Source: a virus
IMG/VR virus record: IMGVR_UViG_3300037493_002420
Span: 4,461-68,460 of that record
DNA: 64,000 bases
Strand: one strand, 5' to 3'
The notes beneath the pieces were generated by a model. That model was not told the DNA's origin, searched no databases, and saw nothing but the letters and a program-made list of their open reading frames with translations. A program made the position numbers and the translations under genes. This document shows positions 57,202 to 61,963 of the stretch, piece after piece; the stretch's first letter is position 1, and every line of letters starts with the position of its first letter.

Positions 57202-57728
57202 CATATGTGCTTTATGTTGGCTTTCAGCAACTTGTTTTTTTCATCTTTATACTTATATAGATATTATTATTGAGCTTCATAGTTTATAATGGTACTTAAC
57301 AGATATATACTACAGAGCAGGTCAGCTATTGACTACGGAACGGTGTAGATATAATATAGATGAGTAAGCTACATTAGATGAAGAGTAATAGTTTGAGTGT
57401 AGATAAAGTTGTCTCCACCCTGTGTAGCTTTGTGCCTTTTAAAAGTTAAGTGCTTGATTATTAAGTAATTAATTTTTGATGGATTAAGTGATGAGAGGGT
57501 CTGATTGAGGGACTGAAATACTTTATCCTCTTCAATACCCTTCAACATACTTGGTAAATACCTCTCAAAGTAGGTACAGTACATAGTATATAGCTATTAG
57601 CCCTTGTACATTAGACCCTTTTACTTATAGTAATTGTTTAAGTACTCTTATATCTATTACTATTACTATATACTAGAGTATCACAGTAAACACATCCGGA
57701 ATTCATTTAACCCACTAAAATATTATAT

Positions 57729-57881
57729 ATGAAAGAACTTAAAAAAGAAGACATACTAAGTATTGCAAAGAAAGAATATGAGATAGGTTTTAAACAGGGT
57801 ATCTCTATAGGAATGTGGATAGGTGCATTTTTAGTTGGAATACTATTTACACTATTTACATATTTCTTTCCTCTTCCTTGA
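57729..57881 (+). CDS. Small single-TM protein, 50 aa (not in the ORF track)
   Basis: MKELKKEDILSIAKKEYEIGFKQGISIGMWIGAFLVGILFTLFTYFFPLP; AT-rich leader. Confidence 0.6.
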   Translation: MKELKKEDILSIAKKEYEIGFKQGISIGMWIGAFLVGILFTLFTYFFPLP

Positions 57882-58136
57882 GTGTAATTGTATCCGGAAT
57901 TAAATAAAATTGGGAGTATGTGACCATGAAAGAGGCATACATTTTAACTAACAACTGGATATAATCAAGCGAATCACCAGTCTAAAAAAGAGTCAGTGCA
58001 ATGGGTAGAGAAGCACATTAATCGTAACTGCCATAACTAAATTATTAATGAAATTAAAGGCTACGTGTCAAGGTGGGAGGTCCATGTGACTATACTTGAG
58101 ATGGGACAACTCATTGGGCTTTTTAATTTCATTTTT

Positions 58137-58280
58137 ACTCTCATCCAAGCAGGATAGTTATGTACAGATTTACTCTGTAAAAAGTAATAGACTTAACCGT
58201 CTGTCTATTACATAATGATCAGGAGGGGAAACCCCGCTCAAGACCACATAATCAAGGGTTGCAACCTTGTGAGAGTACCA
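58137..58280 (+). ncRNA. tRNA-like RNA (acceptor stem + T-arm + CCA) with an expanded central domain
   Basis: ACTCTCA/TGAGAGT 7-bp stem, discriminator A and CCA; the adjacent CAAGG-GTTGCAA-CCTTG arm has a 5-bp stem and 7-nt loop. Confidence 0.6.
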
Positions 58281-58439
58281 ATTAAAATACGTGTTGCCCA
58301 AGCTTCTACAAGATTAGTTATCTTGTCAGTTCTCTTGTCTCATTGAGACATGCTACTGTAATGAGGACAGTACAACTTTGCTTTTAAGGCTACCTTGAAA
58401 TAGGTAAGTGAGTGAGACTTAACTAGTCTAAAGCCTTTG

Positions 58440-58505
58440 TAATGCACCATTCCTGATTCCCAAGGTCAGGCTATAAAGATTAGCTGTCTTATAGAGTGCA
58501 GAGGG
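58440..58505 (+). ncRNA. Twister ribozyme, type P1 (compact copy)
   Basis: UAA-UGCA-CC..CCUGA-UUCCCAAGG-UCAGG-[P5]-AG-UGCA-GAGGG matches the twister core (UAA cleavage site, P2, P4, UCCCAA loop, GAGGG, both pseudoknots); P1 is weak. Confidence 0.8.
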
Positions 58506-58603
58506 GGATCATTGTACAGAAAGCGGAGCAGTAGGCTGTTACAATCAAAACAATAAAAGTTTTTATCATTTGTGCACAGGTGATAATTAAAACGAAGCTC
58601 CTG

Positions 58604-58869
58604 TAATGCACCACAACTCACGTGGATATAAAGACTTCTTGTGATCAGCATAGCTGGAAAGACAGTGAGTGAAAACTCCTACAAGATGTGAAACCACAAT
58701 GATTAACCAATACCTGCAATAATATTCCTTTGAATGCAGGGTAAGGACATATAAGAGGTAACTGTCTTCTTTTAGTTAATCATTCTCCCAAGGGTGAGCA
58801 GTTGTAACATTAGTGATTGGCTCTAGGGGACACCTAACCATAGTTTTTATTACAACTGAGTGCAGAGGG
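58604..58869 (+). ncRNA. Twister ribozyme variant with 163-nt insertion in L4
   Basis: UAA-UGCA-CC..CUCAC-[insert]-CUCCCAAGG-GUGAG-[P5]-AG-UGCA-GAGGG. Confidence 0.7.
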
Positions 58870-59233
58870 GTTATTAATTATTTAAAGTCTTTAATATCAA
58901 GTATAAAATGAGGCAAAATCCGCTAACCTCTTAGAGTATAGTCAGACTGCAGATAACTGCTATATGCTCACGTTCGATAAAATCTGCTGAAGTGAAGGTG
59001 TCAGCATACTTGATATTAATAACATTAATCAATACACTACTAGCTAGGGTGCTTACAGGGGGTTCCCTGATAGAATGTAGAATATAACAGAAGATGTAGG
59101 TTCTACTATTGATTTAATAAGTGTGGGTTGTTACACTATAATAAAACAACTATCCAGTAAGCTGCTGGCGTGGGACTGTCCAGTATAGATACAAGACAGT
59201 AGGCTTTGGTCAATATGCCTTAATGACCATAAA

Positions 59234-59526
59234 TAATGCACCATTCTCACGTGGATATAAAGACTTCTTGTTAACAATAGGGTAGGATAAAACCGTAAAG
59301 TCCCTGTTTTGGTCAAGATGTGAAACCACAATGATTAATAATATCCTCTTATCTAAGAAGGACAGAGAACTATGTTATGTGAGCATGGAACTACTACAAT
59401 TAAGTAGTAAGTTGAAATACATCTATTAATCATTCTCCCAAGGGTGAGCAGTTGTAATAGATATTAGCAGGTAAAGGGTTCAGCTGACTACTCCTGAATA
59501 TATTTATTACAGCTGAGTGCAGAGGG
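59234..59526 (+). ncRNA. Twister ribozyme variant with 184-nt insertion in L4
   Basis: Same scaffold as 58604-58869 with unrelated loop contents. Confidence 0.7.
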
Positions 59527-59628
59527 GTTACTAATTAACATCACAGTCCAATTGCCGTTAGGGTCTAACAAGGGAGACTGGCTGTCCTTGCTGTGATGTT
59601 TATTTTATTAATCTTAACACTTACTAAT

Positions 59629-59703
59629 ATGATATATTTAATTTTAATGGTGATTGTATTTATTATAGGAATAAGTTACTTAACCTACCAACTATTTAAA
59701 TAA
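59629..59703 (+). CDS. 24-aa hydrophobic micropeptide (not in the ORF track)
   Basis: MIYLILMVIVFIIGISYLTYQLFK; AT-rich leader. Confidence 0.45.
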   Translation: MIYLILMVIVFIIGISYLTYQLFK

Positions 59704-59706
59704 TAT

Positions 59707-59973
59707 TAACCTATCATCCTGTGTGTATGAAGACTTCTTATCTTTAAAAGAAACACCTGAAATGGGAGATAAGATGTAAAACCACAATGATTAAGTTTGA
59801 AAATAATACTACAGATTATGCATGTAGTTCTTAATCATTTTCCCAAGAACAGGCAGTTGTAATAAAAGACCAACCAGTAAAGAGTCTGACCTTAAGTGTC
59901 ACCTTTATTTGAACTTGAAATATACTAAGAAGAAAAGGTCTGGGTAATTGATATTACAACTGAATAGGGAGGG
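59707..59973 (+). ncRNA. Twister ribozyme variant with 117-nt insertion in L4 (covarying copy)
   Basis: UAA-CCUA-UC..CCUGU-[insert]-UUCCCAAGA-ACAGG-[P5]-AA-UAGG-GAGGG; P2, P4 and T2 all show compensatory changes. Confidence 0.72.
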
Positions 59974-60012
59974 GTAAAAATAAAACATTACTAACTTAAA
60001 ACTATACTTAAA

Positions 60013-61137
60013 ATGGAAATTAAAACTATAATTAGAGGAGAACAAGAATTGTTCAAAATGGAAGAAGCTAAAGCTTTGCCTTTACCTTTACAGAGATACA
60101 AGTTTTATAAAGGAGACCTGTATCCGTTTAATGTTATCAACAAGAAAGAAACTGATACAAATATTTATTGGTCTCTTACTATAAAAACACCAAGATTTGA
60201 AAACAATAGATTATTTTATCTATCTAAAAATAAATCAGGTGTCACTTTTGATAAAGCTAAAAAGACTATTAAGATTTGGTTTGGCCACAATATCACTACA
60301 TTAGAACATGATATTATGCCAGATATTATTAAAACTTTTCAATTAGATTGGTTCAGTAATATGTCAAATTCATTAAAGACACTCTTAAATAATACAATGC
60401 TTCAAAATTGTATTAAAGGTAAGATTACTAATCCTAGAGATTATGTTAAAGCTTATCTTAAGACTAGTCCTTATAAGAATTTAGATATATCCGTTGAATT
60501 ATTTTATAAGACTTTTAGTGATACCCGTATAGGTTCACCAAAATCTTACAAAAAGACAATTCTTTATAGTGTTAATCCTAATGAAAGTTTAGAGTACATA
60601 GGAAGAACTTTTAATCAGAGTAGTATTAATTCAACTATTTATGACTTATTTAATCAAGCTGAATTACTTGATAGAAAAGTAAATATCAAATGGTCAGAAT
60701 CTAGAATGAAGGAAATACATAAAGAATGGACTAGAGAATTAATGAGTATTGCTATTAATTCAATTGAACCTGTTGAATATAATTATCCGGAACTTGAAAC
60801 ACCTGAAGGTATTAGCTTAATTACAAATAATATTGAATTATTTGAAGAAGGTACAATAATGGACCATTGTGTTTATACTAATTATGAATATAAAGTAAGA
60901 TCTAAAAATTATTTTGTATTTAGGTATAATAGGAATGATGTTAGAGCTACAGTTGGTGTAACACAAGCCGTAGATAAAATAGAAATAAATCAGATGTATT
61001 CTATTAGAAATACTCCAGTTGACCAAGAACATAAAGATTATGTTTCAACATGGTTAAATTCTGAGTATACTAGAAATTGGTTTACAGCTGATAATGAAAA
61101 AGTAGTTTTAATTGACACTAATACTGATTGGTTATGA
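60013..61137 (+). CDS. PcfJ-like domain protein
   Basis: C-terminal ELFEEGTIMDHCVYT.Y..RATV..QMY..RN motif. Confidence 0.7.
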   Translation: MEIKTIIRGEQELFKMEEAKALPLPLQRYKFYKGDLYPFNVINKKETDTNIYWSLTIKTPRFENNRLFYLSKNKSGVTFDKAKKTIKIWFGHNITTLEHDIMPDIIKTFQLDWFSNMSNSLKTLLNNTMLQNCIKGKITNPRDYVKAYLKTSPYKNLDISVELFYKTFSDTRIGSPKSYKKTILYSVNPNESLEYIGRTFNQSSINSTIYDLFNQAELLDRKVNIKWSESRMKEIHKEWTRELMSIAINSIEPVEYNYPELETPEGISLITNNIELFEEGTIMDHCVYTNYEYKVRSKNYFVFRYNRNDVRATVGVTQAVDKIEINQMYSIRNTPVDQEHKDYVSTWLNSEYTRNWFTADNEKVVLIDTNTDWL

Positions 61138-61534: not shown

Positions 61535-61963
61535 ATGAAGAATATGTTAGGAAGAGCTATTGAAATAGCAGTAACTGCACATGCAGGACAAGTAGACAAA
61601 GGTGGTAGACCTTATATATTGCACCCTTTATGGGTAATGGATAAAGTAAGACATTTAGGAGATGATTATATGATTGTAGCAATACTTCATGATGTAGTTG
61701 AAGATTCTAGTTGGACTATTGAAGAATTAATAAGATTCGGATTTAATCAAGATACAATGTACGCATTATCTCTTTTAACTCATGTAAAAGGAGTTAGTTA
61801 TGATGATTATATCAAAGCAATATCAACAGATCCAATTGCTAAAGCAGTTAAGTTACGTGATTTAGAACACAATACTAAAGTTACAAGACTTAAAGGATTA
61901 AGAAAGAAAGACTTTGATAGACTTGAAAAGTATCATAGAGCATATACTTACTTATTAGATTAA
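61535..61963 (+). CDS. HD-domain (p)ppGpp hydrolase-like protein (SpoT/Mesh1-type)
   Basis: AH.GQ.DKGG.PYI.HP..AILHDVVED..VKL.D..HN. Confidence 0.85.
   Translation: MKNMLGRAIEIAVTAHAGQVDKGGRPYILHPLWVMDKVRHLGDDYMIVAILHDVVEDSSWTIEELIRFGFNQDTMYALSLLTHVKGVSYDDYIKAISTDPIAKAVKLRDLEHNTKVTRLKGLRKKDFDRLEKYHRAYTYLLD

Follow-up and report, generated by a model that had tools for sequence, protein, structure and literature searches.

Does a phage carry an array of self-cleaving RNAs with which it cuts its own transcripts? The question is raised by a stretch of 64 kb, referred to here as the window, taken from a 68.5-kb IMG/VR virus record that is 57% complete and derives from an aquatic, crAss-like phage. 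An initial annotation of this DNA had described four co-oriented elements, spanning 1.5 kb of the + strand, as cores of the twister ribozyme. From the analysis of their layout, conservation and pairing presented below, we consider it probable, at about 0.78, that the four elements, once transcribed from the + strand, are self-cleaving RNAs of the twister class.

The four elements and their compact relatives

The proposed core was written as a strict descriptor comprising, in order, TAA, the helix P2 (4 bp), the pseudoknot T2 (2 bp), a linker of 0–6 nt, the helix P4 (5 bp) and an optional insert, followed by CCCAA, T2′, P4′, the P5 domain, P2′ and GAGGG, with every pair obligatory. Search of the window returned exactly the four elements of the initial annotation (Table 1), all on the + strand and none on the − strand. 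One hundred dinucleotide-preserving shuffles, searched on both strands, gave a mean of 0.02 matches with a maximum of 1, any match being found in 2 of the 100. The motifs UAA and GAGGG are present in 4/4 copies. The helical strands listed in the annotation agree exactly with the sequence: P2 is UGCA/UGCA in three copies and CCUA/UAGG in copy 4; P4 is CCUGA/UCAGG in one copy, CUCAC/GUGAG in two and CCUGU/ACAGG in copy 4; and T2 is CC/GG in three copies and UC/GA in copy 4. Unconstrained minimum free energy (MFE) folding yields P2, P4 and P5 in copies 1–3. The caution that P1 is weak was well placed, the numbers of pairable positions among the first four from the junction being 2, 0, 3 and 3 for copies 1–4, respectively; in copy 2, 0/6 positions pair.

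Relatives were fetched from IMG/VR with two core patterns, one consisting of TCCCAAG, six free letters and CAGTTGTA, and the other of ACAACTGA, five free letters and GAGGGG, each giving at least 120 matches. The relatives searched are 210 source sequences (2.0 Mb in total). The descriptor identified 114 elements in this set, 113 without one chimera, and these are of two kinds: compact elements have 2 nt before CCCAA, and expanded elements have 68–196 nt. A covariance model, R1, was built from 27 compact elements, and its application to 98 sources gave 97 compact matches (92 distinct) at E ≤ 1e-15. Fitted to R1, these matches form the alignment A3. On the 64-kb window R1 identifies the four copies only, scoring 67.1 bits for copy 1, itself a member of the R1 seed, 49.2 bits for copy 2, which lies outside the seed and is matched in its 3′ half, 53.2 bits for copy 3 and 34.7 bits for copy 4. 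The next match in the window is at 12.8 bits (E 0.22).

Analysis of A3 revealed that 94.7% of the cells are paired, as against 83.6% when partners are shuffled (0/500 as high) and 25–55% when partners are slid by 1–3 columns. P2 is 100% paired, with both sides changed at 3/5 pairs and with UGCA, UGUA/UACA and UGCG/CGCA among its forms. P4 is 99.8% paired and has both sides changed at 5/5 pairs; at least 11 different P4 stems occur among the elements found by the descriptor. At the base of P5, 98.3% of the cells pair and 8/9 pairs have changed on both sides. The 5′ strands of P2 and P4, and UAA, were fixed by no fetch pattern. For the pseudoknot T1, in which CCC pairs with the last three letters of GAGGG, the paired fraction is 99.6%, and at the middle position 90 elements have CG and 2 have AU. 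In the latter (L014:999–1090 and L183:613–772), CCC/GGG has become CAC/GUG; each is the second copy of a locus that had been fetched because of its other copy, and no search pattern chose them. T2 is pairable in 100% of elements (CG 84 and UG 8 at one pair, CG 91 and UG 1 at the other), and the sole both-sided change is the U–A pair of window copy 4. The base following UGCA covaries with that preceding the P2 3′ strand (CG 84, UA 8), which points either to a fifth P2 pair in competition with the outer T2 pair or to a triple. Over four positions, P1 is 68.8% paired across the family compared with 49.6 ± 2.3% in shuffles (0/2000 as high), and amounts to some 3–4 weak A–U-rich pairs. G–U pairs occur within the helices, and the pairing is therefore valid for the + strand RNA only.

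The two A residues after the predicted cut and the UU, AA and GG of the P4 loop (L4) are found in 92/92 elements, the U before the cut in 88/92 (C in 3, A in 1) and the first G of GAGGG in 89/92, so that UAA, UUCCCAAGG and GAGGG are near-invariant. Variants of the last motif have A for the first G (L055:2714–2836 and L121:2437–2596), a deletion (L027:3249–3373) or the sequence GAAGG (L086:2103–2222); these four are possibly dead copies.

Several side observations concern the wider family. Two elements stand in tandem at L044:9419–9545, with two bases between ...GAGG and the next UAA. At L001:11410–11445, upstream of an intact expanded copy, a decayed L4 without CCCAAGG comes after an UAAUGCACC start, and the whole looks like the degenerate remnant of a compact copy. 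A AACCGUGA-like piece is common to several P5 domains. The P5 domain of L085:4471–4546 (− strand) matches the c-di-GMP-I-UAU riboswitch aptamer at 16.6 bits (E 0.2; cut-off 65.9), probably by chance. In bacterial and archaeal genomes 41 stretches fit the pattern, with full P4 complementarity in 5 (L220, L223, L237, L240 and L242), while L221 has the 3′ end and pairs 3/5 positions of P4. All these matches are on contigs of metagenome-assembled genomes (MAGs) and are probably binned phage DNA. The L221 and L223 contigs (118 kb and 59 kb) are binned to Chitinophagaceae and Sediminibacterium MAGs, which is at most a faint hint of a host.

The expanded form

In copies 2–4 of the window, the P4 5′ strand and CCCAAGG are separated by a long insert within L4 (Table 1). 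An automatic anchor recovered the same insert plan in 20/22 expanded elements, mis-anchoring L101 and window copy 4. Hairpin A begins right after the P4 5′ strand, and its base is GUGG/CCAC in 15/22 elements and GUAG/CUAC in 5/22. Hairpin B follows directly, is 7/7 paired in 12 sequence versions and is separated by 2 nt from CCCAAGG. The insert is minimal, at 68–69 nt, in L083 and L208, where hairpin A is a plain stem-loop. It has an invariant internal loop, and a 24-nt piece of it was found in 5 IMG/VR contigs.

The 23 expanded elements were aligned with MAFFT, giving an alignment that is not fitted to structure. In this alignment 97.3% of the cells are paired versus 91.9% with shuffled partners (0/500 as high) and 32–44% with slid partners. 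The base of hairpin A is 98.9% paired, one pair being GC in 18 elements and AU in 5; hairpin B is 97.5% paired, with both sides changed at 6/9 pairs; and T1 is 100% paired in the 23 copies. For 22/23 of these elements the descriptor itself required P2, P4 and T2 to pair, and the independent evidence therefore comes from hairpins A and B and from P5. Window copy 4 and L076 have a common hairpin-B loop and differ in P2, P4, T2 and the hairpin-B stem, with complementarity kept in each. The pairing pattern predicts that L4 is the third strand of a three-way junction in the expanded form, an arrangement that, to our knowledge, is not part of the published twister consensus. We interpret the two-hairpin insert as an accessory domain that acts in folding or in regulation.

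Relation to known ribozymes and alternative explanations

As described in PMC6154101, the twister cut falls at a U–A step, L4 is tied by two pseudoknots to L1 and L2, P1 is dispensable for cleavage, and in catalysis a conserved G (G45) serves as the base while the A 3′ of the cut serves as the acid. The same review gives P3 and P5 as optional, occurring in 78% and 1% of twisters, respectively. Judged by sequence against these features, the family appears to possess all but a solid P1. It departs from the usual form in having no P3 and in always having P5, whose base is near-constant in sequence. The closest known relative is the type-P1 twister (RF03160; rice and environmental structures), in which the parts follow the same order (U/A cut, P2, T2 strand, P4, L4 with CCCAAG, P4′, optional P5, P2′ and GAGGG) and T1 and T2 are the two pseudoknots, T2 being a candidate in the family. 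Unlike that type, the family has a P1 of weak pairs that is missing altogether from copy 2, a covarying fifth P2 pair and, in three window copies, a two-hairpin L4 insert, and it scores far below the Rfam cut-off. Twister-sister, according to PMC6154101, resembles twister in its P4 terminal-loop sequence and in some secondary structure, but it cannot form two loop–loop pseudoknots and is without key conserved twister nucleotides, whereas the window family keeps a covarying T1, UAA and GAGGG. The Rfam twister-sister model gave no match at E ≤ 10 in 58000–60400 or in 58425–58520.

The initial annotation had proposed the Rfam twister-P1 model as a check, and on the window copies the outcome was negative: 0/4 were matched, the compact copy included, even at E ≤ 10. 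At the gathering thresholds no twister was reported in the whole window. At E ≤ 10 the interval 58000–60400 gave no twister and just weak miRNA, snoRNA and similar matches (E ≥ 1.1), and the 96-nt interval 58425–58520, which holds compact copy 1, gave sR33 at 9 bits and no twister. Search of the whole record with RF03160 gave no match, so that operational membership of that family (gathering 67.2 bits) applies to 0/4 window copies. A connection was found through the smallest relative, L140 (261–325), which has 57 nt between UAA and GAGGG and a P5 of 16 nt. Twister-P1 is the sole Rfam family that it matches, full-length over 1–68, at a sub-threshold 18.8 bits (E 0.063), and the alignment, in which the Rfam consensus (..UAA-P2-GC ... 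P2′-GAGGG..) is covered over the entire model, sets UAA, P2, GAGGG and a 3-bp P1 as proposed here. It is the only one of the four compact members run individually to give a match (1/4). The absence of P3, the long P5 and the weak P1 likely lie behind the low Rfam scores. Overall, the layout, the near-invariant letters, the covariation of P2, P4, P5 and T1 in some 90 relatives and the sub-threshold twister-P1 alignment agree with one another and bear out the identification of a twister core.

A number of observations weigh against self-cleaving twisters. No Rfam twister model matches any window copy at E ≤ 10, and the L140 score is 48 bits under the RF03160 cut-off. The longer-P5 relatives L085 and L038 likewise gave no Rfam twister match at E ≤ 10, nor did any of 20 loci, each with an R1 match, give a twister at gathering (0/20). 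P1, which is phylogenetically conserved in known twisters, is weak in copies 1, 3 and 4 and absent in copy 2. At the first G of GAGGG, 3/92 elements have A or a gap (A in 2), so that some copies in the family may be inactive. The covariation statistics carry a selection effect, in that the R1 seeds were chosen by a descriptor with perfect P2, T2 and P4 and A3 was fitted to the model; with TCCCAAG or GAGGGG set in advance by the fetch patterns, variation in T1 is under-represented. We know of no published twister consensus that includes an insert of 119–186 nt within L4, and such an insert could hinder the formation of T1 and T2. Finally, the sole RNA-library contig touching the region (258 nt, from run X24) spans the first cut site uncut. 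The expression data consist of assembled contigs of public runs, in which RNA ends are not visible; gaps and joints in the DNA contigs were given no evidential weight. The X24 contig covers 58290–58449 and then enters a compact copy with a different P4; it comes from a relative and may be DNA carry-over, and it carries no weight on cleavage.

Some of these observations would be accommodated if the elements were twister descendants that have lost cleavage, at any rate in the three expanded copies, and that serve as folded modules, such as scaffolds binding a protein or a ligand, or 5′ stabilisers, the insert being the functional part. That the insert equals the core in conservation and contains an invariant internal loop fits such a role, as do the missing P1 of copy 2, the failure of the Rfam twister models to score the window copies and the natural A at the first G of GAGGG in 2/92 elements. 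We nevertheless think this explanation unlikely. UAA, GAGGG and UCCCAAGG are kept in 23/23 expanded elements, in which T1 is fully paired; these are the predicted active-site letters, and their retention would be unexpected after a loss of catalysis. Moreover, compact and expanded forms stand side by side with the same core.

It is far less probable that the elements act as DNA-level repeats, such as recombination sites, an origin or protein-binding sites, with the RNA pairing incidental. Consistent with this idea, the non-coding modules around them are shuffled between phages: the window spacers match different phage loci, each at 88–94%, metagenome contigs join across copy pairs, and an invariant 25-nt box lies upstream. 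Against it, compensatory changes keep the long-range pairs and two pseudoknots, and the G–U pairs make the structure strand-specific. The family elements are also intergenic and always oriented as the next gene, at a median of 166 nt from a same-strand open reading frame (ORF) of at least 60 aa; 40/104 lie within 100 nt of such an ORF, and 16/113 overlap an ORF by more than 30 nt. A chance likeness of AT-rich repeats to the twister consensus, to which the missing Rfam match of the window copies might point, can be dismissed in view of four matches observed against 0.02 expected and some 90 distinct relatives that covary.

The locus and the proposed cleavage

The virion proteins of the phage, among them the portal and the major head protein, are encoded by a long − strand module of the window. 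The closest cultured relatives of the portal are those of crAss-like phages and of Leptolyngbya phage Lbo-JY46, at no more than 31.6% identity, the nearest being Lbo-JY46 itself at 31.6%. An R1 match in Lbo-JY46 (19.5 bits, E 0.004) is antisense within an annotated coding sequence and was treated as chance. From about 54 kb onwards the genes of the window are small and on the + strand. The array occupies 1.5 kb of a 2.1-kb gap between + strand genes (57882–60012), in which the longest ORFs are at most 43 aa on the + strand and 66 aa on the − strand; the stretch is non-coding. The spacers between copies have no strong additional structure (z −2.3, −0.7 and −1.3). No match to 57900–60020 was found by blastn among 50,697 phage records, and at that sensitivity there is thus no cultured relative with the region.

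Table 1. Positions of the four elements and of neighbouring features in the window
Feature	Position	Strand	Predicted cut	Parts and remarks
Copy 1, compact, 66 nt	58440–58505	+	U58440/A58441	P2 58443–58446 with 58497–58500, possible fifth pair C58447–G58496; T2 58447–58448 with 58463–58464; P4 58452–58456 with 58466–58470; L4 a plain loop, UUCCCAAGG, 58457–58465; P5 hairpin 58471–58494; GAGGG 58501–58505
Copy 2, expanded, 266 nt	58604–58869	+	U58604/A58605	P4 58617–58621 with 58794–58798; L4 insert 165 nt; hairpin A base GUGG 58622–58625 with CCAC 58694–58697; hairpin B 58698–58706 with 58776–58784; CCCAAGG 58787–58793; P5 base 58799–58807 with 58850–58858; GAGGG 58865–58869
Copy 3, expanded, 293 nt	59234–59526	+	U59234/A59235	P4 59246–59250 with 59444–59448; L4 insert 186 nt; hairpin A base 59251–59254 with 59326–59329; hairpin B 59330–59338 with 59426–59434; P5 base 59449–59457 with 59507–59515; GAGGG 59522–59526
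Copy 4, divergent expanded, 267 nt	59707–59973	+	U59707/A59708	P4 59718–59722 with 59849–59853; L4 insert 119 nt; P5 base 59854–59862 with 59954–59962; GAGGG 59969–59973; 39 nt from its end to the ATG at 60013
Invariant 25-nt box	58254–58278	+		AAGGGTTGCAACCTTGTGAGAGTAC; 161 nt upstream of copy 1; once in window
Long hairpin, then U-rich	59537–59609	+		UUUAUUUUAUU; between copies 3 and 4; in MFE and centroid folds
Gene next after array	60013–61137	+		374 aa; weak PcfJ-like domain

The product of the gene following the array matches Pfam PF14284 at 31.1 bits (E 2.5e-7) and has no PHROG match. Further downstream, a 142-aa ORF (61535–61963) matches phrog_990, a metal-dependent phosphohydrolase family (E 1.2e-53), and covers just the C-terminal half of that family (positions 151–293 of 374).

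The box upstream of copy 1 recurs, at ≤3 mismatches, 35 times in 34/210 sources. Its strand is always that of a twister starting 3–576 nt downstream, with one outlier at 9340 nt, and its flanks on both sides are unrelated between sources. It is a candidate promoter or start signal, RNA hairpin signal or processing site of the same locus. Read as a sigma-70 promoter, the window box scores 9/12 (TTGCAA-18-TAAAAT); its putative −10 is not conserved in other loci. In the L168 variant of the box, both sides of a 4-bp stem are changed. The region 58290–58449, 150 nt of which precede copy 1, is 97–100% identical in lake, seawater and marine RNA-library contigs, where it continues into a compact twister with a P4 of CUCAC. 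This different P4 after a near-identical leader indicates that one leader has been joined to different ribozyme copies. The hairpin between copies 3 and 4 looks, in its predicted fold, like a terminator, although a simple terminator scan of 57300–60200 listed 0 sites and therefore not this one; a terminator-like hairpin in this position argues against the single long early transcript of the initial annotation, and the four copies need not share one RNA. An early timing of transcription, suggested by the gene layout, is only a guess.

In the family at large, a hairpin often lies immediately upstream of the predicted cut. By the descriptor, which undercounts elements per locus, a locus strand has 1 element in 94 cases, 2 in 6 and 3 in 1; 4 occur in the window only. 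A same-strand tRNA lies within 2.5 kb of 17/113 family elements (L002, L005, L064, L065 and 13 others), downstream by 0.56–2.3 kb in 16 and upstream by 376 nt in one. An adjacency of the two was rejected, the tRNAs being in the same region as the elements and not next to them. ARAGORN found no tRNA in the window.

From the anatomy, conservation and covariation we infer cleavage, its sites, the transcript units and a role for the array along the following lines. During transcription, P2 and P4 would form and P5 would close as a hairpin. The CCCAAGG of L4 would then make two pseudoknots, its CCC pairing with the GGG of GAGGG (T1) and its GG with the CC after P2 (T2), to give the double-pseudoknot core of a twister. 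By analogy with solved twisters, the 2′-OH of the U in UAA would attack its own 3′ phosphate, with a conserved guanine as general base and the adenine directly 3′ of the cut as general acid. We take the catalytic guanine to be the first G of GAGGG. The expected products are an upstream RNA ending in U with a 2′,3′-cyclic phosphate and a downstream RNA that begins with a 5′-OH A and carries the entire folded ribozyme. With just 0–3 weak pairs in P1, and with the ribozyme lying wholly 3′ of the cut, immediate release of the upstream RNA would be expected. A cut at copy 4 would give the mRNA of the 60013 gene a 5′-OH and a structured leader, and in many relatives, too, the downstream RNA would be an mRNA leader; copies 1–3 would divide a non-coding RNA into segments of 164 nt, 630 nt and at least 290 nt. 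The phage, then, probably cuts its own transcripts at the array, which may plausibly serve to separate adjacent RNAs and to set their ends and stability. The same role has been proposed, without proof, for bacterial twisters in PMC6765202.

A more elaborate version, which we hold to be doubtful, makes a single non-coding RNA gene of the box at 58254, copies 1–3 and the hairpin at 59537–59609. The cuts would then yield defined RNAs of 164, 630 and about 375 nt, whose 5′-OH and 2′,3′-cyclic phosphate ends would suit RtcB-type ligases and could lead to stable or circular small RNAs, and the L4 insert would be a switch, responding to a protein, a ligand or co-transcriptional timing, that sets when the cuts occur. 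A search of the phage record, which is incomplete as noted above, gave no match to RtcB (PF01139).

Returning to twister-class cleavage in general, ribozymes near phage genes are not in themselves new. Bacterial self-cleaving ribozymes (hammerhead, twister, pistol and hatchet) show enrichment in the neighbourhood of Mu-like phage genes and of other ribozymes, according to PMC10085705 and PMC6765202, which give their function as unknown and mention the processing of polycistronic transcripts as a proposal. The present case differs from those clusters: a single class is represented four times in 1.5 kb of a free crAss-like phage genome from aquatic and sediment samples, the surrounding 2.1 kb is non-coding, and a conserved 25-nt box lies upstream. 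Rfam at gathering reported no further ribozyme class in the window or in the 20 family loci. The full-text literature searched contains no description of phage twister arrays or L4 inserts; the 2014 and 2015 discovery papers or their supplements may list the family. What appears to be new, judging from sequence comparison, is a large phage-borne branch that is invisible to Rfam and has an obligatory P5 and a weak P1, together with its two-hairpin L4-insert form and the four-copy array.

Since Rfam at gathering misses this phage branch, ribozyme counts in viromes are likely to be too low. If the insert is compatible with cleavage, it would mark a new site at which the twister fold accepts a large domain, which would be of use in the engineering of switchable twisters. 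The reviews PMC6765202 and PMC10085705 present the role of twisters in bacteria and phages as a question unanswered ever since the class was discovered, and the family offers a cleaner system for its study than scattered prophage copies. A single phage lineage contains hundreds of its members, at fixed places, often 30–170 nt before a gene and after the box and sometimes in arrays; compact and insert forms coexist; and there are natural compensatory variants for every helix, T1 included.

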